IMG/VR virus record: IMGVR_UViG_3300032257_000019
Span: 1-50,316 of that record
DNA: 50,316 nt
Direction: 5' to 3' (one strand)
Origin: a virus
Lineage: Duplodnaviria > Caudoviricetes
Shown here: piece by piece, positions 696-38,528 of the stretch
Position numbering within the stretch: the stretch's first letter is position 1
Layout of the letters: every line of letters begins with the position of its first letter
Notes under the pieces: generated by a model
The model's database searches: none
What the model saw: the letters and a program-made list of their open reading frames with translations, nothing else
What the model was told of the DNA's origin: nothing
Program-made: the position numbers and the translations under genes

Positions 696-2219
696 TTAGT
701 ATCCGGTTGCCCTGCATCTACCTTTCCTAGCCAAACCTGACCTTTTGAAAGATACTCGTCTATCGTTCTCTGCCTCTTCTCTGAGAGTAGGGGCTCTATT
801 TAAATCCATAATCTTTGCACATATATGAGCTATAGCATCTACTATATCGTCATGTACACCTCGAGGAAAGGATATTAACTCAGTTAGTGTATCATCCCAC
901 CAATCAGCTTCTTTATTAAACCTCATAGCTCCAGCTCTTGTTCTATGCTGGAATGGTCTAGCTCTTACTTCCTTATCCTGGGATACACCTACTGTATCAT
1001 AATTAACTTGTCTTAATTCACCAGGTCTATACATCTCTTTAAGTAATACAGGCTCTATTGCTTCCCATATTGCTCCTTTCTCAAATAAGAATAAGTCAGG
1101 AGTGTATCTATCATATATTGTTAGTATTTCTTCTACTATTTGAAAAGAGTCCCACCTGCCTCTTCTAACATCAACTAAATGAAACTTCCCTCTATCATCT
1201 ACACCTATAATAGCAAATACTGTATAATCTGCATAACTCTTACGAGAGATAGCAAAGTCACCCCCTACGAAGTATCTGAAACCTCCTCCAGTGATCTTAG
1301 CTATGTCTTCAGCTTCCATAGGGAGTAAGTCATCTCTACGAAAGTATGCACTTCCTTCATCTATTGGATAGTTCAAGTACTCTTGAGCATATCCTTCTGG
1401 TTTACCTAGATCAAGGTATGTTTGCTTTATTCTTAATAATCTTTCTTTAGTAAACTTCTCTGGCCATAGCATGTACTTGTAATCAGGGCTATGTGCTCTA
1501 AATCTTACTGCTTTCCATGTAGGATGCTCTTCATTAGTAAAATCAGCTAAAGGAGTCTGTATTAGTTCAATACCTTTCTCTTTATTAGCTTTAGGCATGA
1601 AGTTCTCTAATAATGAATCTAAATGAAGAATAGTACCTACTACTCTAACTATACCATTATCAGATAAACAAGGCATTAGAGCCTCTACAAACCATCCTTT
1701 AAACTTATCTCTTCTTTCCTGGTTCATAACGATATCATCATTTTCCATATCATCACAAACTATTAGATCAGGACGAGTACCATTCCATAACATACCCCTG
1801 ATCTTCTGATTACTACCTTTAGCTTCCAATCGGAAGGTATGTCCGTCATTACCTAATCGTACTATGATCTCAGTATCAGTATCCTTAATCATCTTAGGTT
1901 TGAAGATCCTCTTGATCTCCTCATTCTCAGTAAGTTCCATTGTTATATTCTTAAGGAAGTTACGAGCTTGTCCCTCTGTATTTGATACTATTACTGCATA
2001 CTTCTTCTCTCTGAATAAGAGATTACTTATTAAATAAGCATGTGTTACACTTGTACTCTTGGCATGTCCCCTTGGAGCTGCTATTGCTACTTGAGGATGT
2101 TCTGAACAACATAAATTCCAGAGATCCATGTGGAAGTCTGGAGTAGGTTGAGCGTTGTCATATCTTGCAGCTAGGACTCCTTGCGAGAATGCATATATCT
2201 GATCAGCAGTTAAAGACAT
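696..2219 (-). CDS. terL: Terminase large subunit
   Basis: Walker A-like APRGHAKST, Walker B RPDLIVCDDME, coupling motif VVGT, and RNase H-like nuclease motifs (GGDFA; FPRGVHDDIVDA). Confidence 0.95.
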   Translation of the reverse strand: MSLTADQIYAFSQGVLAARYDNAQPTPDFHMDLWNLCCSEHPQVAIAAPRGHAKSTSVTHAYLISNLLFREKKYAVIVSNTEGQARNFLKNITMELTENEEIKRIFKPKMIKDTDTEIIVRLGNDGHTFRLEAKGSNQKIRGMLWNGTRPDLIVCDDMENDDIVMNQERRDKFKGWFVEALMPCLSDNGIVRVVGTILHLDSLLENFMPKANKEKGIELIQTPLADFTNEEHPTWKAVRFRAHSPDYKYMLWPEKFTKERLLRIKQTYLDLGKPEGYAQEYLNYPIDEGSAYFRRDDLLPMEAEDIAKITGGGFRYFVGGDFAISRKSYADYTVFAIIGVDDRGKFHLVDVRRGRWDSFQIVEEILTIYDRYTPDLFLFEKGAIWEAIEPVLLKEMYRPGELRQVNYDTVGVSQDKEVRARPFQHRTRAGAMRFNKEADWWDDTLTELISFPRGVHDDIVDAIAHICAKIMDLNRAPTLREEAENDRRVSFKRSGLARKGRCRATGY

Positions 2220-2222
2220 TCA

Positions 2223-2372
2223 TTACTTCTTCTTCTTGTTATTCTTCTTAGTAGCTCCTACCATATCAGCAAACTTCTTACCCATCTTGAATAATGAGAA
2301 CTCTTCTACAGGAGCTGGTTTAGGCTCCTCTTTCTTCTTACTCTTCTTCTTTAATAAATGTAATTTAGCCAT
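2223..2372 (-). CDS. Small Lys-rich hypothetical protein (49 aa, MAKLHLLKKKSKKKEEPKPAP...KKKK)
   Basis: ORF read by hand with an upstream AAGGA RBS; its stop abuts the TerL start. It is below the ORF-track length cutoff. Confidence 0.65.
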   Translation of the reverse strand: MAKLHLLKKKSKKKEEPKPAPVEEFSLFKMGKKFADMVGATKKNNKKKK

Positions 2373-2382
2373 ATCTATTTCC
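2355..2382. repeat. 28-bp direct repeat, copy 1 (copy 2 at 2641-2668)
   Basis: taaatgtaatttagccatatctatttcc versus taaatgtaatttagccgtatctattccc, 2 mismatches. Confidence 0.85.
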
Positions 2383-2389
2383 TTTATAA

Positions 2390-2480
2390 TGGGTAGCTAT
2401 GTAGGGAATCGAACCCTTTATCTCACCTTCCGGCATCGAACCGTCCACATTATTATAATGCTGCCCCTTGGCCATAGCTC
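2390..2480 (-). ncRNA. tRNA-like element or degenerate tRNA
   Basis: Closing stem AGCTATG/CATAGCT, T-arm AGGG-TTCGATT-CCCT and 3' end ACCCA. The D and anticodon arms are non-canonical. Confidence 0.45.
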
Positions 2481-2554
2481 ACTGTTTGGCCAGGTCTTAT
2501 TTATACAGATGGGACCTGGTATCTCTGTGTTCCTGGGTGCTACCCAGTATTAAT

Positions 2555-2630
2555 TGGCTGGGAAGACAGGGCTCGAACCTGTGACTAGCGCATTAACAGT
2601 GCGCTGCTCTACCTACTGAGCTACTTCCCA
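2555..2630 (-). tRNA. trnN: tRNA-Asn (GTT) with encoded CCA
   Basis: 76-nt cloverleaf: acceptor TGGGAAG/CTTCCCA, D-arm GCTC...GAGC, anticodon arm GCGCA-CTGTTAA-TGCGC, T-loop GGTTCGAG, discriminator G, then CCA. Confidence 0.95.
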
Positions 2631-2640
2631 TAATAATCAG

Positions 2641-2668
2641 TAAATGTAATTTAGCCGTATCTATTCCC
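2641..2668. repeat. 28-bp direct repeat, copy 2
   Basis: See copy 1. The ATG of copy 1 on the minus strand is ACG here. Confidence 0.85.
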
Positions 2669-2672
2669 GTGT

Positions 2673-2867
2673 TTAATGGTAGTAAATCCAAGGTTTCTTA
2701 TCAAGAGGCCATATTAACTCCTCTTTCCCTCTCATAGTTTTAGTAACTAATCCTCTTACCTCGGCTCTTCTCTTTTTATGCTTATTTAAACGCCTATGAA
2801 GTTTGGGTTCAGCCCATATCCACTTATCCCATTTCCTATGTCTACCATGTCTATAGGATCTTGACAT
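2673..2867 (-). CDS. Small Arg/Lys-rich hypothetical protein (MSRSYRH...PWIYYH)
   Basis: ORF track 2673-2927. The start is moved to ATG 2867, which has an upstream GGGAAG and avoids the hairpin at 2890-2932. Confidence 0.6.
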   Translation of the reverse strand: MSRSYRHGRHRKWDKWIWAEPKLHRRLNKHKKRRAEVRGLVTKTMRGKEELIWPLDKKPWIYYH

Positions 2868-3019
2868 AAATATACTTCCCATAATAAATAGCCCATGATG
2901 CTTGGTTTGAACCCAAGTCTTGCCCATGGGCTTAAAAATATCTAGGTCTCCCTCCTAGTTGGCAGTAAGGTTTTAGGCTGCTTCACCAATAACTAAATGG
3001 ATGTTCTCCTTGTCGGGGA

Positions 3020-3193
3020 TTATTCTTTATCTTTCTGATCTTCATCTTCAAGAAGGGCTTCCATTTCCTTCTTCTTCTCAATTTCTTTAGCTAAGGTATT
3101 CTTGTGTTTACCAAAGATAGCGTCCCAGTTTTCTTTATATAAAGCACTAGGTACTTCAGAGGCTATCTTCTTTCTATTATTTATTATTGCCAT
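3020..3193 (-). CDS. Small hypothetical protein (57 aa) with an S-x-x-Y-x-E-N-W-D-x-I-F motif
   Basis: Read by hand: MAIINNRKKIASEVPSALYKENWDAIFGKHK...EDQKDKE, with an AAGG RBS. I recall this motif as recurrent in tiny phage proteins. Confidence 0.7.
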   Translation of the reverse strand: MAIINNRKKIASEVPSALYKENWDAIFGKHKNTLAKEIEKKKEMEALLEDEDQKDKE

Positions 3194-3230
3194 ATTAAAA
3201 ATACCTTCTTATTGTTAATTCTAATATCTT

Positions 3231-3437
3231 TCAGTTGCATTCCCAGGTCATTTTACTATTGGGTAGTCTTTCATTAATCTCATCAATTATTAGATCTTGG
3301 TGGTTCTTACTATGAGAGCAATATTCTTTCTCCCCTTTAATAAATACACCTTTAGCCTTTTCATCAAACTTAGTCTCTATTACAGAGCAACTAGCTAAGA
3401 ATAGGATACAACCTGCTAATAATACTTTAATCATCAC
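3231..3437 (-). CDS. Small lipoprotein (possible o-spanin-like or envelope protein)
   Basis: Signal peptide with lipobox LASC and two additional cysteines. Confidence 0.6.
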   Translation of the reverse strand: MMIKVLLAGCILFLASCSVIETKFDEKAKGVFIKGEKEYCSHSKNHQDLIIDEINERLPNSKMTWECN

Positions 3438-4167
3438 TTACTTCCTCTCCATCTGAATTATATGTACCTAATATACTTTTAGGGGCCTTACCTTGTCCAA
3501 TTGCTTCTACTAACTTAGCTGCTACATCCTCGAGTACTTCTTTATCAGACTTCTTCTCACTGATAGATGTAGGTTCTCCTCTTAGGATACTTTGCTTATC
3601 TCTACCAATTGATGCTATAACCATTAGGTCCTTAGCTTTAATAGGAGTATATTCTACTCTAATCTTAGTAACTGTCTCTCCAGTAGACAGATCTTTATAC
3701 GCATCCTTGATAATAGTAGGATCACCTAAGGCTAACCTTTCCATGGTACTCTCGAGAGCTTTATCTACTATTTGACCTAATTTAGCATCTAGTCCTTCTT
3801 TCTGGGCACTTAGAGCATACTTAACAGCTTGGGGCCACCATGGGGCTTCTTGCTTCCAATACCTTATTGTTGCTGCAGGTACTCCAGTTAACTTAGAAGC
3901 TTCTTTACTTGAAGCAGTGGTAACATAAGCCAGGGCAGCTCTTAGTTTAGTCCTACTATCGTACTTAACTCCAACTTTATTAATCTGGGCATCATCAATA
4001 TCTTGAAAGGCTTGTTGTAATTCCCTATCCTTTTGACGGTTATCATCCCACTCTAGCCTATCAAGCCTCTCTAATGCCTCCTCCCGATCTAATTCTTTAT
4101 CAGTCTTAGGGGTATCAGCAGGGCTTGATACTTCAAAGGGGGCTATTCTGTCTTTCTTCTTGGCCAT
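3427..4167 (-). CDS. terS: Terminase small subunit (putative)
   Basis: HTH-like SSKEASKLTGVPAATIRYWK, helical oligomerisation region and LRGEPTSI motif; lies upstream of TerL. Confidence 0.7.
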   Translation of the reverse strand: MAKKKDRIAPFEVSSPADTPKTDKELDREEALERLDRLEWDDNRQKDRELQQAFQDIDDAQINKVGVKYDSRTKLRAALAYVTTASSKEASKLTGVPAATIRYWKQEAPWWPQAVKYALSAQKEGLDAKLGQIVDKALESTMERLALGDPTIIKDAYKDLSTGETVTKIRVEYTPIKAKDLMVIASIGRDKQSILRGEPTSISEKKSDKEVLEDVAAKLVEAIGQGKAPKSILGTYNSDGEEVSDD

Positions 4168-4199
4168 ATTTGGTCTTATTTTCTGATCCGATTAAAGAG

Positions 4200-4227
4200 T
4201 TAGACAACAAAGTGTCGGTAAAAGTTC
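4200..4227 (-). promoter_or_regulatory. sigmaE/ECF-type promoter P1, GAACTT-N16-GTCTAA, upstream of terS
   Basis: Minus strand reads TGAAATTAAATT-GAACTT-TTACCGACACTTTGTT-GTCTAA. One of four intergenic copies. Confidence 0.75.
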
Positions 4228-4251
4228 AATTTAATTTCAATATATTTACAA

Positions 4252-4488
4252 CTATTTTATTAAACCCTTATCTATCAGAGACTTAGTGCTTATGTCATCA
4301 AGTCCTCTTTCTTCAATAACTTTAGCCATTTCAATTATTCTAGAAACAGGATAAAAGTCATTATTATTCATACTCATACCAAGATAAGGTTCTTCTAATA
4401 ATAGTCCTCGAGAGTCTCTATGCATCATCCTATAGGTTACTACTATATCTTTTTCGTATGAAGAGTACTGGGGTTCTATACTACTCAT
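4252..4488 (-). CDS. Hypothetical protein
   Basis: 78-aa ORF with a strong GAGGAGG RBS. Confidence 0.7.
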   Translation of the reverse strand: MSSIEPQYSSYEKDIVVTYRMMHRDSRGLLLEEPYLGMSMNNNDFYPVSRIIEMAKVIEERGLDDISTKSLIDKGLIK

Positions 4489-4626
4489 TTTCTTCCTCCT
4501 CTCTTGTAGAAGCCCTCTGGAGCCTCTCTACGGCGTTCTCTCTACTTTTAATACATTGGTACTTATATTTGTCTTGCGCCTCTCTGAGAGCTTCCTGTGA
4601 AGCCTGAGGGCATCTCTCTCTACCTA

Positions 4627-5040
4627 TTAGATCTTTTTCCATTGGTCTATCACCCATTTGGTTAGTTTCTTAAGAAAAGAAGTATTATCCAATTGTTTAG
4701 GTAACTTATTCAATTTATCCTTTTCTACCTCTATCTGATCTTTTATCAGTACTATATGTCTTTTATCCTGTACTGCTGTACCTGCATGCTTTGTTATTGG
4801 AGTTAGTGACTGCCTATCTGCATCCTCAAATAGAACCATACCCCTAGGTGATATAGCTGTGCATAGTACCTCATATACGTACCTCTCTCCTCTAGGGTCT
4901 TGGAACCCCCTACTGTAGTCCTCTATCTCAGATTTACTGTATATTATAAGATCTGGTCTATCCCCCTGATAGTTAATGCCTCTAAGTTGTCCTCCAAAGG
5001 GGACATTTCTAATCTGTCTACCATACCACTGCACTATCAT
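4627..5040 (-). CDS. Protein containing a degenerate terminase ATPase (Walker B region) fragment
   Basis: QLRGINYQGDRPDLIIYSKSEIED...YEVLCTAISPRGMV aligns with this genome's TerL KIRGMLWNGTRPDLIVCDDMENDD...VEALMPCLSDNGIV. It has a GAGG RBS. Confidence 0.65.
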   Translation of the reverse strand: MIVQWYGRQIRNVPFGGQLRGINYQGDRPDLIIYSKSEIEDYSRGFQDPRGERYVYEVLCTAISPRGMVLFEDADRQSLTPITKHAGTAVQDKRHIVLIKDQIEVEKDKLNKLPKQLDNTSFLKKLTKWVIDQWKKI

Positions 5041-5149
5041 CGGTATTCCCTCTTAACCTGTAAACCCTCTGTCTCTATTGGCCTACCCAGGAGTATTCTA
5101 AATAGATCTTTATACGTCAAATAAACTATATCACTACTAAATGCATTAT

Positions 5150-5470
5150 GTTTTACTCTCATCGGGATATCTCCTCATCAATCTATGTCTATAAGTTAAG
5201 GTTAGCACATTTTTCTGTACTCTGTCAAAAAGAGGAATACTCTAGTACGCTGTAATAAGTGTATGTATGTACTTAAAGTATGAGTAGCTCCTTAGGAATA
5301 CTCCTTGGGAGTACTCTGACTGGTCGCTATTCCAGTGGAGTAGTATCAGGTTATTACTCTTGTTTGTATTTACTCTGAAGTAGGAATAATACCTGATGAG
5401 TACTCTCATACTTCTGATTACTTACACACTGAGTAACTATCAGGATTACTCCTAAGCATAACTCTTTTAG
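5150..5470. repeat. Non-coding cluster of GAGTA/TACTC pentamers and short palindromes
   Basis: About a dozen irregularly spaced copies (GAGTACTC twice, GGAATACTC twice, ATTACTC twice, GAGTAGCTC, GAGTAACT) and no long ORF. Confidence 0.65.
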
Positions 5471-5473
5471 TAG

Positions 5474-5501
5474 TTAGACAACAGAATGTCCGTAAAAGTT
5501 C
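5474..5501 (-). promoter_or_regulatory. sigmaE/ECF-type promoter P2, (G)GAACTT-N16-GTCTAA, at the head of the leftward (late) arm
   Basis: Minus strand reads G-GAACTT-TTACGGACATTCTGTT-GTCTAA-CTACTAAAAGAG; near-duplicate of P1 over about 50 bp. Confidence 0.75.
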
Positions 5502-6015
5502 CATTTATTTTCCATATATTTTATAAATAATTATAGATAAGGCTCTAACTGGTTGATATTTGCATTTAGTCTAGGTTAGTGGTTACTAACATGGGAAGTG
5601 TTACTATGCATTTTCATGTTACTATTCCAAATATATATAAATGGGAGTACCCAGGAAGTACTTGTGAAATTGCCAAAATATAATTGGGAGTGTACATACC
5701 AAATGAGCCCTCCAGAGTTTTTCCCCCCTCCCCCCTTCACTAGAAACAGTACCCTACCCCCCCTTTTATAATTATTCCAAGTCTAGCACGATAGGGGCAT
5801 GATCGAAGGAGATAGGCGCAAATACTCCAATAAGAAAGGCACGAGATTTCCGGAGGAGCGGCCCCCCCTATATACATCAATGACTTACCACTATCATTAC
5901 CTTATACTATGCCTAGTGGATACCCCCTCATGAACCACAAGAGGCATATTCTAGAATAAAACATGATATACATCACAGTTTAATGGATTATTTGCATTTA
6001 ATTTACAATGAGCCC

Positions 6016-6045
6016 TTGAATTATTCAGATACTAGCCGCTATAAT
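6016..6045 (+). promoter_or_regulatory. Putative sigma70 early promoter, TTGAAT-N18-TATAAT
   Basis: Perfect -10, 4/6 match at -35, AT-rich upstream; 45 bp before the first early gene. Confidence 0.55.
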
Positions 6046-6090
6046 TACCACATAGAGACACAAACAGAGACTAAACAAGGAGACACACTA

Positions 6091-6243
6091 ATGATTAACA
6101 CAATGGGCACAAAATCACACGCCACACAAGAGCAAGCTTTTAACCATATGGAAGGACTTATTAATGATAATTATCATGTTACTAGCTGTCCTGATATGGA
6201 AAACAAAGGTAATACCCTAGTAATTTATTGGATGGAGGCATAA
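6091..6243 (+). CDS. First early gene, hypothetical protein (50 aa)
   Basis: ORF track 5983-6243. The start is moved to ATG 6091, after an AAGGAG RBS. Confidence 0.65.
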   Translation: MINTMGTKSHATQEQAFNHMEGLINDNYHVTSCPDMENKGNTLVIYWMEA

Positions 6244-36161: not shown

Positions 36162-38528
36162 TTAGTAATCCAATAGTTCTATACAGAATGTAGTATGAGT
36201 CTCATCAATACCCTCAGAGACACCAGAAGCATGGTATACAAGAAGTTCAAAGTAATCAGTAGCAGCCACGTTAAGGATAGGAGTACTTATACTGAAGGTA
36301 TCTATACCTAGCTGGGAGGGGTCATACTGCATTTGAGCAACAGTTAGTGTTCCATTCTTCCTGATATAACAATATCCTTCAGTACCTGATAAGGTAGTAT
36401 CGAATATCACATTACCACTCAATTTAACTTTAGTAAATCCACTAGGTACAGTTAATCTAGTATTGTTTGTAACAGTATCATGGCAGGAGTGAGTATCATA
36501 GTGTTCTGCATTGAATGTTAATGTATTCGTTGTGCCTGTGTTTAGTGTTTTGGTCCCAGTATAATATACCAAAGCCCCTCGTAGTTGAAGGACATCTCCA
36601 TCTACGTATACGCCATTAACAGCATCTACTGTCCCTGTTCCATTCCCAGTATCTAAAGGACTACCTGATACTACTAAGCCCCCAGCTGAGTGGTCAATGA
36701 ACATCTTTAATGAGCCACCAGTACCGAACCACATATCCGTAGCTTCGTAATTGTAGATTTGGGCAGTTTCACCAGAGTTTAACCCAAGCAATAGGCCATT
36801 GTTCGAGGCAGTTCCAGTGTCTGAGTTCTGTATCAATATACCACTAGTACCCGTATTATCCCCATATACAACTAAGTCAGCATTTGGGGTAAGGTCCGTA
36901 GCATCTGGACTTATTAGAAAATTACCATTAGAAGATATCTTAGCTCGTCTAGATCCACCAGTAGCAAAGATTAAATCTGTGTTTTCATAGTTCCATACTA
37001 GTGCTTGTTCAGAAGTATTTATACCTGTTAAATACCCGACACTTCCTGTCGTGCCTGTTGTACTATTAACAAACTGACAGTAGGATTCCCCACTTGCTGA
37101 GGTAGCATGTATTACTAATTCATTTTCAGGAGTAAAATCAGTGCCCCCTGGAGATATTACCCAATTACCCCCAGATGCTATCTTACCTCTAAATGTATTA
37201 TTAGTATAAATCCATATATCAGTGTTCTCATAATTACGAAGAACACCTTGTTCGTTTGTATTTAATCCAACTAAAAAACCATCAGAGCCAGTGGTACTAG
37301 TAATACTATTAGTATATTGAGTATAGGCATCTCCATTAACTCCACCGTATATGCATAGATCGTAAGTAGGAGTAAAATCTGTACCATCAGGGGTTATTAG
37401 GAAGTAACCATTAGAAGATATCTTACCTCTGAATGTATTATTAGTTGCTAAGACAAGATCTGTATTCTCGAAATTCCATAACGCAGCTTCTTCAGACCCA
37501 TTTATACCCACAATGAACCCATCAGTAGAGGTTGATAGAGTATCTGCATTAACATACTGAGTATATATTCCAGTACTTGCAGAAGAGTGTTCTAATACTA
37601 AGTTATTATCATTTATTGTAACTTGCCCAGTAAATGAGCTTGTTCCACTATGGATATTAGCCCCACTAAATGTATTATCTCCACTAAATGTATTATCTCC
37701 AGTAAGTGTCTTATCCCCAGATATAGTCTCAGCAATATCATTTAACTCATTAGCTTGTGTTCTGAAGTTATCTACATTAACAGTCTTACCAGTAGTAGAT
37801 ACTAATACCTGTAACTTAGCATATCTTGCAGTAGAAGGAGGAGTAAATAATACTCCCTTGTCGGTCCAAGAAGTAGGGTTAGTGGCACTATCCGAATACA
37901 AGTCAGAGTTAGATATAAATAACTGTGCATCTGTATACCATTTCATTCTAACAATTACATTAGCATCTACAGCTGAGGCTTTCATAGCCCATCTTAATAT
38001 TTCTTGTTGACCTTCTTGTACTTCAAAGAAGTCAGTAATAATATCAGCGGTATTAGCAGAAGCTATAGTAAACTTCATAGAAGTAGTACCGTGGTAGTTA
38101 TCCGCAGTATCTAGTGCTAAAGTATTACCAGTCCCTGCAGTAGCGGTCCAGTTATCAGGAGTACTATCCCCGTTTGCATCTGTCTCGAATGAACCATTAG
38201 GGACCTTATTCGCTACACCTACCGCATCAGCAGTTACATCAACATCCCCTACATCATCTAATGTCCAGTAAGGAGAAGCTGGAGGATCAGTATCATTAGC
38301 AGGAGCTAATACCAACTTATACTTACCATCAAGGAACATAGTACATTCCCCATTAGCATCAAGGATGATAGGGTTAGTATTAGCGGTATTTTGATCAAAG
38401 TCCTCATGAGTAGTCTTCTTAGTAGAAGTACCAGGTTCATATGTGAATAATTTAGCACCCACAGCTAATTGATTAGTTCCTGGTAAGAAGAACTTAAACT
38501 TAGGGTATCCATGTATAGAAACAGTCAT
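36162..38528 (-). CDS. Tail fibre / spike protein
   Basis: N-terminal attachment domain (TYEPGT...NTNPIILDANGE), CBM-like NGSFE domain, four repeats of about 80 aa, and a C1q/TNF-like C-terminus. Confidence 0.85.
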   Translation of the reverse strand: MTVSIHGYPKFKFFLPGTNQLAVGAKLFTYEPGTSTKKTTHEDFDQNTANTNPIILDANGECTMFLDGKYKLVLAPANDTDPPASPYWTLDDVGDVDVTADAVGVANKVPNGSFETDANGDSTPDNWTATAGTGNTLALDTADNYHGTTSMKFTIASANTADIITDFFEVQEGQQEILRWAMKASAVDANVIVRMKWYTDAQLFISNSDLYSDSATNPTSWTDKGVLFTPPSTARYAKLQVLVSTTGKTVNVDNFRTQANELNDIAETISGDKTLTGDNTFSGDNTFSGANIHSGTSSFTGQVTINDNNLVLEHSSASTGIYTQYVNADTLSTSTDGFIVGINGSEEAALWNFENTDLVLATNNTFRGKISSNGYFLITPDGTDFTPTYDLCIYGGVNGDAYTQYTNSITSTTGSDGFLVGLNTNEQGVLRNYENTDIWIYTNNTFRGKIASGGNWVISPGGTDFTPENELVIHATSASGESYCQFVNSTTGTTGSVGYLTGINTSEQALVWNYENTDLIFATGGSRRAKISSNGNFLISPDATDLTPNADLVVYGDNTGTSGILIQNSDTGTASNNGLLLGLNSGETAQIYNYEATDMWFGTGGSLKMFIDHSAGGLVVSGSPLDTGNGTGTVDAVNGVYVDGDVLQLRGALVYYTGTKTLNTGTTNTLTFNAEHYDTHSCHDTVTNNTRLTVPSGFTKVKLSGNVIFDTTLSGTEGYCYIRKNGTLTVAQMQYDPSQLGIDTFSISTPILNVAATDYFELLVYHASGVSEGIDETHTTFCIELLDY

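Follow-up and report, generated by a model that had tools for sequence, protein, structure and literature searches.

An open reading frame ahead of the packaging genes of a tailed phage resembles the terminase ATPase core without its catalytic residues

Ahead of the packaging genes of a tailed phage lies a small orphan gene, ORF137 (positions 4627..5040, minus strand, stop codon included; 137 aa), whose N-terminal 70-80 residues are confirmed by profile comparisons as homologous to the ATPase of the terminase large subunit (TerL), from the strand that precedes Walker B to the C-motif strand. The window, that is, the whole stretch of DNA analysed here, is a complete virus record of 50,316 bp with a 127-nt terminal overlap, in which ORF137 sits 2.4 kb upstream of the true TerL gene (696-2219, minus strand; PHROG 38, E 7.7e-79). 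Our preferred reading, to which we would give a probability of about 45%, is that ORF137 may be a translated, lineage-specific accessory gene encoding a non-catalytic mimic built from the ATPase core of a foreign TerL. It stands second in a cassette of four ORFs (ORF41-ORF137-ORF58-ORF78), and its first 70-80 residues would have been taken from the ATPase core of a TerL of the T7 gp19/PhiV-1 type, from a lineage other than the phage's own. To our knowledge, no protein of tailed phages is more conserved than the terminase, which is also the target of several immune sensors. A minimal TerL piece with no ATP site, kept as a gene of its own where the packaging operon begins, would offer a compact way to test whether phages reuse terminase parts as binding modules, be it in motor regulation, competition between phages or immune evasion.

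The segment attributed to the TerL ATPase spans residues 5-80 of ORF137 (4801..5028, minus strand) and comprises a strand, an Arg-Gly loop, the Walker B strand, a helix, the C-motif strand, a six-residue insert and L-T-P. When compared by hhalign with a profile of seven TerLs, residues 5-71 are aligned over 66 columns with a probability of 96.1% (E 3e-9) and 44% identity to the consensus. Among the 149 six-frame pieces of positions 2230-6000, ORF137 is matched at E 1e-9 by an HMM of seven TerLs, and at E 3e-6 by a second HMM of 45 TerLs, made of the same seven plus 38 non-redundant sequences out of 74 TerLs of at least 400 aa (from 80 IMG/VR loci). None of 3000 composition-preserving shuffles of ORF137 reached its score with either HMM. 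The significant match occupies HMM positions 171-242, with another, weak one (E 3-33) at positions 108-148, past those of the P-loop.

Database searches led to the same protein family. A phmmer search of 1.84 billion representative proteins returned three of them at E <= 0.001: the query itself, P0003 and P0002, the last of which is repetitive and was discarded as a spurious match. P0003, a 553-aa TerL matched at its residues 188-269 (E 5e-4), is the sole credible non-self match; residues 7-88 of ORF137 align with it by pairwise BLASTP with 31/85 identical positions (E 5e-13), and P0003 is itself homologous to the window's TerL over its full length (24% identity, E 1e-24). When the 80 TerL loci were searched with ORF137 by tblastn, 52 HSPs were obtained at E <= 1 and, among the matches listed (40 of the 52), all but one lie in residues 1-97 of ORF137, which correspond to the Walker B part. 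The TerL profile itself matches T7 gp19 (4bij) and the terminase chain of 8dgc across the segment that corresponds to ORF137.

The initial annotation had based the relationship on the phage's own TerL, to which it aligned the first ~70 residues of ORF137 almost without gaps. This resemblance is real and was recovered by BLASTP, tblastn and alignment at TerL residues 139-200 (1620..1805, minus strand). The first pair of stretches then quoted, LRGINYQGDRPDLIIYSKSEIED in one protein and IRGMLWNGTRPDLIVCDDMENDD in the other, shows 10/24 identical residues by BLASTP (25 bits, pairwise E 8e-4), and the second pair is also aligned in the MAFFT alignment; by tblastn, the match to the own TerL extends over 54 aa (31% identity, E 0.008). 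Taken alone, this self-match is weak, as 1/300 shuffles reach its score and its E-value rises to 0.07 when the search covers all 680 six-frame pieces of the window. A chance similarity, with ORF137 unrelated to TerL, could be argued from that marginal value, from the lack of any Pfam or PHROG family matching ORF137 at E <= 1 (0 and 0), and from the failure of Foldseek to retrieve a TerL; a phmmer search of the PDB sequences with ORF137 gave no match of any kind below E 1. We regard such a coincidence as highly improbable, given the hhalign E-value, the shuffles tried against two independent TerL profiles, the fact that the search of 1.84 billion proteins has a TerL, aligned at the same motif, as its best match, and the dozens of independent TerLs that match the same region of ORF137. 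The homology is solid because of this outside evidence (P0003, hhalign and the HMMs), and not because of the self-match.

Six of the eight columns that are invariant in the seven TerLs are kept in residues 5-71 of ORF137 (R20, G21, R28, D30, L31 and E38), and both lost columns are exactly the Walker B acidic pair. The Walker B strand of the homologous part reads RPDLII, and it is followed by S35-K36 (4933..4938, minus strand; codons AGT AAA) in place of the DD found in 7/7 aligned TerLs, a replacement already pointed out in the initial annotation; each of these two codons is two positions away from GAY. At the C-motif, MAFFT sets L79-T80-P81 under G-T-P after the six-residue insert, and the hhalign alignment ends at residue 71. 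The reported absence of Walker A and of the nuclease domain also holds: no G/A-x4-GK-S/T motif occurs in the 137 residues, and the protein ends at residue 137 with no HMM match to nuclease positions inside. Besides ORF137, no P-loop or other significant TerL-like piece was found in any frame of 2230-6000. Because the P-loop is missing and S-K stands in place of the Walker B pair, ORF137 is predicted to be incapable of binding or hydrolysing ATP. Four of the six features that define a TerL (Walker A, the Walker B acidic pair, the nuclease domain and a match to curated family models) are lacking, so ORF137 should not be annotated as a terminase.

Compared with the TerLs of the T7 gp19/PhiV-1 type (4bij, 8dgc; PHROG 38), ORF137 shares ~70 residues of homology, from the Arg-Gly loop through the C-motif strand. 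It differs from them in being a separate gene that covers about a third of the ATPase domain, with no Walker A or nuclease domain, SK for DD, an L in place of the C-motif G after the 6-aa insert, and 55-60 C-terminal residues that are either unrelated or rearranged. Pseudoenzymes and dominant-negative ATPase subunits keep the scaffold and selectively lose the catalytic residues, usually with the whole fold preserved; ORF137 is like them in the residues it keeps and loses, but unlike them in that most of the fold is missing.

For the C-terminal half of the protein (residues 85-137; 4630..4788, minus strand) there is no secure homology. It bears a weak, out-of-order likeness to the TerL strand and helix that come after Walker A (hhalign P 0.023, probability 2%), with 36/3000 and 95/3000 shuffles reaching its scores. 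An AF2 model of ORF137, made from an 8-row alignment, has a mean pLDDT of 57 and a pTM of 0.48, with pLDDT <50 at residues 85-124, and the ESM Atlas model has a pLDDT of 0.37. When the ORF137 model was compared with the PDB by Foldseek, no match was found at E <= 0.001, and only Rossmann-like methyltransferases appeared, at E ~1. The similarity to terminase ATPase domains that the initial annotation anticipated is borne out at the profile level (hhalign 96.1%, E 3e-9), but not by the structural comparison. Three strands from the middle of an ASCE sheet, on their own, may fail to fold.

Although the resemblance to the phage's own TerL stands, this protein is not the closest relative of the fragment. 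When the ORF137 segment was aligned on its own with 45 TerL segments, it was identical to P0003 at 27/73 positions versus 18/73 for the own TerL, which ranks 18 of 45. This alignment superseded one made with MAFFT --add --keeplength, which scattered the fragment after Walker B and ranked the own TerL 33 of 46. In a FastTree phylogeny, ORF137 and the P0003-P0008 clade are sisters (local support 0.947), with ORF137 on a terminal branch of 1.98 substitutions per site versus a median of 0.19, about 10 times the typical length; the tree is built on a short alignment and may be affected by long branches. Its closeness to the P0003 clade and its long terminal branch argue that the segment comes from another TerL lineage, not from a recent copy of the resident TerL, and that it would have changed very fast since, with the same caveats of alignment length and long branches. 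No other paralogues of the cassette ORFs were found within the window.

The genomic context of ORF137 is that of a variable block placed before conserved genes. Leftward genes run from ~5200 to 1 and continue through the end of the record as the packaging and structural operon, and rightward genes start at ~5980. The order along the minus strand is ORF41, ORF137, ORF58, ORF78, ORF246, several small ORFs, tRNA-Asn, TerL and portal; the cassette has the divergent control region on one side and, on the other, the small-terminase-like gene that heads the packaging operon. This last gene, ORF246 (3427..4167, minus strand), has a MerR-like HTH (Pfam hits below cut-off) and is likely a small terminase or a DNA-binding packaging protein. 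It provides the syntenic anchor with relatives, as it is homologous to 206/207-aa proteins located upstream of TerL in MW202796 (E 2.5e-16) and OK172329 (E 4e-8). The two nearest relatives, cultured or assembled, are MW202796 (TerL 45% identical) and Alcaligenes phage vB_Af_QDWS535 (OK172329; TerL 40% identical). ORF246 and TerL are shared with MW202796 and OK172329, and neither has a match to ORF41, ORF137, ORF58 or ORF78. Because both nearest relatives share ORF246 and TerL without the cassette ORFs, the cassette is, as judged from this gene comparison, a lineage-specific insertion ahead of conserved packaging genes.

Within the cassette, ORF41 (5037..5162, minus strand) has its own Shine-Dalgarno (SD) sequence, GAGGAG, and no TerL similarity. 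The last gene, ORF78 (4252..4488, minus strand), is an orphan with no similarity to TerL and no tblastn match among phages. The boundaries are marked by a 50-nt direct repeat (unstranded), with an upstream copy at 5472..5521 and a downstream copy at 4198..4247, the latter ending 30 nt before the start of ORF246. The two copies, the only ones in the window, agree at 44/50 positions and have sharply defined borders. Around the tRNA, the same operon carries a further duplication scar, a 42-nt repeat with an inactivated gene-start copy (ATG>ACG).

A promoter-like site, TTGACA-18 nt-TGcTAACCT (5199..5228, minus strand), was read by eye upstream of ORF41, and it could drive the cassette. A consensus scan missed it, since its second hexamer matches 3/6, and the same scan found no excess of promoter-like sites (12 found versus 12.5 expected). 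The previous proposal that ORF137 is the first sizeable ORF after a promoter remains plausible with the site at 5228-5199, but this site is absent from the consensus scan. An Rfam scan of 4000-6100 gave a chance-level miRNA match alone (E 0.96). Morons are accessory cassettes inserted between conserved phage genes. The block that contains ORF137 is like a moron in being lineage-specific and bounded by repeats, with its own promoter-like site and a conserved gene after it; it is unlike one in that no terminator was found in a scan of the cassette strand, and in that its content derives from a core phage gene.

ORF137 looks like a real gene rather than debris, since several marks of a translated gene coincide in its sequence. 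Its stop-to-stop open frame has 141 codons, compared with 105-122 aa for the longest presumed non-coding shadow ORFs in the window (by our reading of the ORF list), and the homologous part runs with no internal stops or frameshifts of the kind expected in a pseudogene. An SD-like AGAGGG (5048..5053, minus strand) precedes the ATG by 7-8 nt, in agreement with the claim that ORF137 has its own ribosome binding site; in the window, an SD core is found upstream of 14/25 long genes versus 251/2107 of all ATGs. Moreover, the ATG of ORF137 overlaps the TGA stop of ORF41 (ATGA). The whole ORF has an in-frame codon score of 0.147 (N-terminal half 0.139, C-terminal half 0.199); by comparison, none of 500 off-frame windows exceeds -0.197, and four shadow ORFs range from -0.13 to -0.28. 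True-gene windows have a mean of 0.30 (sd 0.087), which puts ORF137 at their 5th percentile, a position that weighs against the gene reading. In a simulation of neutral drift, random substitutions drawn with the local base composition were applied to the ORF137 frame (600 runs per level), and the frame was still stop-free in 50/600 runs at 80% amino-acid identity, 4/600 at 60% and 0/600 at 40%.

On a different explanation, recombination in a variable region would have left the cassette as the scrambled remains of a second TerL, of foreign origin, and ORF137 would be a functionless relic whose frame is open by luck or recency. The loss of its catalytic residues, its very long branch and its low-end codon score would all be expected from decay, as would the other duplication scars of the operon (the 50-nt repeat and the 42-nt repeat with its dead gene start). 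ORF58 (4481..4657, minus strand) adds to this picture. This ORF shares 31 nt with the end of ORF137, read in a different frame, and lacks an SD. It is weakly like a helix of the TerL nuclease domain (hmmsearch E 0.6), being the second-best of the 149 pieces with both HMMs, at positions 375-413 or 447-471. An SD-less ORF in a new frame that matches a part of TerL further on would fit a decayed, frameshifted TerL copy, and ORF58 counts in this way against the gene reading. The shuffles that reach its score are 49/3000 and 55/3000 (p ~0.017), the corresponding values for the out-of-order likeness of the ORF137 C-terminus to the strand and helix after Walker A are p 0.012-0.032, and hhalign gives ORF58 a probability of 0.16% against TerL. 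Once the ~5 pieces examined are allowed for, neither the likeness of ORF58 nor that of the ORF137 C-terminus is significant.

What weighs against a relic is how rarely a drifting frame of this length stays open, together with an SD that is correctly spaced and a start coupled to ORF41, and a non-homologous C-terminal half that scores as coding too. In addition, no Walker A or other TerL remnant is present in any frame of 2230-6000. In a survey of the 80 other TerL loci (605 kb), detached TerL-like pieces at E <= 0.01 were found in 0/80, and TerL was split in place in 3/80; detached TerL pieces are not common debris. The literature searched on truncated, paralogous and pseudogene terminases and on decoys yielded no description of a dead TerL fragment gene. 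All in all, we consider the relic unlikely, if still a serious contender. Even as a relic, ORF137 would document how fragments of core genes are captured in the variable stretch that precedes the packaging genes.

The distribution of ORF137 speaks on the side of the relic. The query alone was recovered by tblastn against the phage collection, by a word search for homologues of the small gene of near and longer lengths among 5.8 billion proteins, and by searches of viral, metagenome and genome contig collections, and the ESM Atlas gave no usable match. ORF137 is thus a singleton in every collection searched, which counts against the gene reading; with no homologue of the small gene, a recent origin is possible. 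Single-protein scans of viral contigs with the own TerL and with P0003 found no close relatives, and a blastn of positions 3000-6000 against phages gave no match.

If ORF137 is instead the translated accessory gene that we favour, its position would allow co-expression with the packaging genes, and its protein would be produced alongside theirs. Its action would be through binding, with the retained TerL surface or strand elements contacting a usual partner of the TerL ATPase domain. Candidate partners would be a TerL subunit, either the phage's own or that of a P0003-type rival, or a host sensor. A packaging-motor regulator or a poison subunit, the former already suggested in the initial annotation, is a possible but unsupported role. 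The Arg-Gly loop retained in ORF137 lies ~14 residues before Walker B, and the trans-acting arginine fingers of some TerLs are presumably located at about the position of R20. Such fingers exist in phi29, P74-26 and D6E, according to the accessible part of PMC7617512. A single complex prediction of ORF137 with TerL residues 1-300 scored 0.02 versus a mark of 0.32, and bears neither way.

As for host sensors, the initial annotation had proposed a decoy, in which ORF137 would bind a terminase-sensing immune protein (Avs1-3 or Upx) instead of TerL and blunt it. Its derivation from TerL and its location in the same operon would suit that role, and the discussion of PMC13601566, in its accessible text, raises TerL-like non-terminase proteins as anti-defence proteins. 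The accessible portion of the same work describes how these sensors recognise their target. SeAvs3 reads the active-site residues of the terminase and the bound ATP, and EcAvs2 relies on a bridging ATP and buries ~2830 A2 across the whole ATPase domain. Neither the active-site residues, nor the bound ATP, nor the large shape-matched pocket used by SeAvs3 and EcAvs2 is present in ORF137. Because it has no ATP site and amounts to at most a third of the ATPase domain, an Avs1-3 decoy role appears unlikely by analogy with these systems. Furthermore, the TerL-like proteins vs.8, Ksap1 and Ksap2 are reported in the accessible text of PMC13601566 as activators of Avs2, that is, they trigger it and do not block it, and a mimic that bound Avs1-3 sensors would be expected to do likewise. 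On balance we find the decoy, whichever the sensor, quite improbable.

Upx is the more interesting sensor in this respect. According to the accessible part of PMC13601566, Upx is modelled to bind, by beta-augmentation that does not depend on sequence, core strands of the TerL ATPase that are disengaged, and it tolerates Walker B mutations; ORF137 would essentially be such strands without the remainder of the fold. One can then imagine ORF137 as an evolved strand mimic, in which the core beta-strands of a terminase ATPase are permanently free of the rest of the fold and either fill the strand-binding groove of a sensor that, like Upx, is modelled to recognise unfolded TerL by beta-augmentation, or enter the ATPase ring of a P0003-type rival. 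Such a molecule would protect the packaging of its own phage with no enzyme activity, as a counter-measure made from the very protein that the host or the rival targets, although we see this as a long shot.

Among the proteins described so far, those closest in kind to ORF137 are the stand-alone TerL-ATPase-like accessory proteins, T4 vs.8 and Ksap1/Ksap2, noticed only recently and known to us from the accessible text of Evans et al. (2026, PMC13601566). Like ORF137, they are lineage-restricted phage accessory proteins similar to the TerL ATPase and encoded apart from the terminase. By their description, on which this comparison is based, vs.8 has a whole ATPase fold with Walker A and B and activates EcAvs2, whereas ORF137 lacks the complete fold with both motifs that defines proteins of the vs.8 type in that source, and is a short fragment without an ATP site.

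Only one DNA sequencing run, possibly the source sample, contains the stretch, and no RNA dataset is listed as containing it. An independent assembly of that run produced a contig of 50,219 nt which, with no alternative joint at the 50-nt repeats, is identical to the window over positions 3400-6000.

The cassette formed by ORF41, ORF137 (the small gene carrying a segment derived from the ATPase of TerL, the large terminase subunit), ORF58 and ORF78 is flanked on both sides by a 50-nt direct repeat (4198-4247 and 5472-5521), whose two copies, the only ones in the whole genome, are identical at 44 of 50 positions and have sharp borders. The downstream copy is separated by 30 nt from the start of ORF246, a TerS-like gene, and the repeat may be a scar left by recombination or, alternatively, a site with a regulatory or packaging-related role that has been duplicated. 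The region from the upstream copy to ORF41 (about 310 nt, including 5242-5471) has a single ORF, of 55 aa, whose codon score is below zero (-0.29), and the region probably serves as a non-coding leader.

Within the cassette, ORF58 (4481-4657, minus strand) weakly resembles a helix of the TerL nuclease domain, ranking second among the 149 six-frame pieces of 2230-6000 with the two TerL HMMs (shuffle p ~0.017). It overlaps ORF137 by 31 nt, no Shine-Dalgarno sequence precedes it, and it may represent a remnant, a frameshifted continuation or a chance similarity.

A second insert, within the packaging operon, follows the same pattern as the ORF137 cassette, with a duplicated gene start on both flanks. 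Here a tRNA-Asn (GTT; 2555-2630, minus strand) lies between the copies of a 42-nt direct repeat (2355-2396 and 2641-2682). The RBS of ORF49 and its initial codons (MAKLHL...) fall within this repeat, whose upstream copy has ACG instead of the ATG. T-loop-like GGTTCGAT motifs also occur at ~2400-2445, a hint of an additional tRNA fragment.

The same operon holds a 68-aa ORF (3231-3437, minus strand) without any PHROG match, whose N-terminus, MMIKVLLAGCILFLASC, resembles a lipoprotein signal, complete with an apparent lipobox cysteine. In the divergent intergenic region (5700-5890), which gave no Rfam match, the minus strand shows long G runs, such as GGGGGGTAGGG and GGGGGGAGGGGGG, unusual for a genome with a GC content of 38%. 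Finally, a 788-aa ORF (36162-38528) contains repeats of 18, 30 and ~240 nt, both in tandem and dispersed (36839-37723), a typical feature of repetitive fibre or tail proteins.
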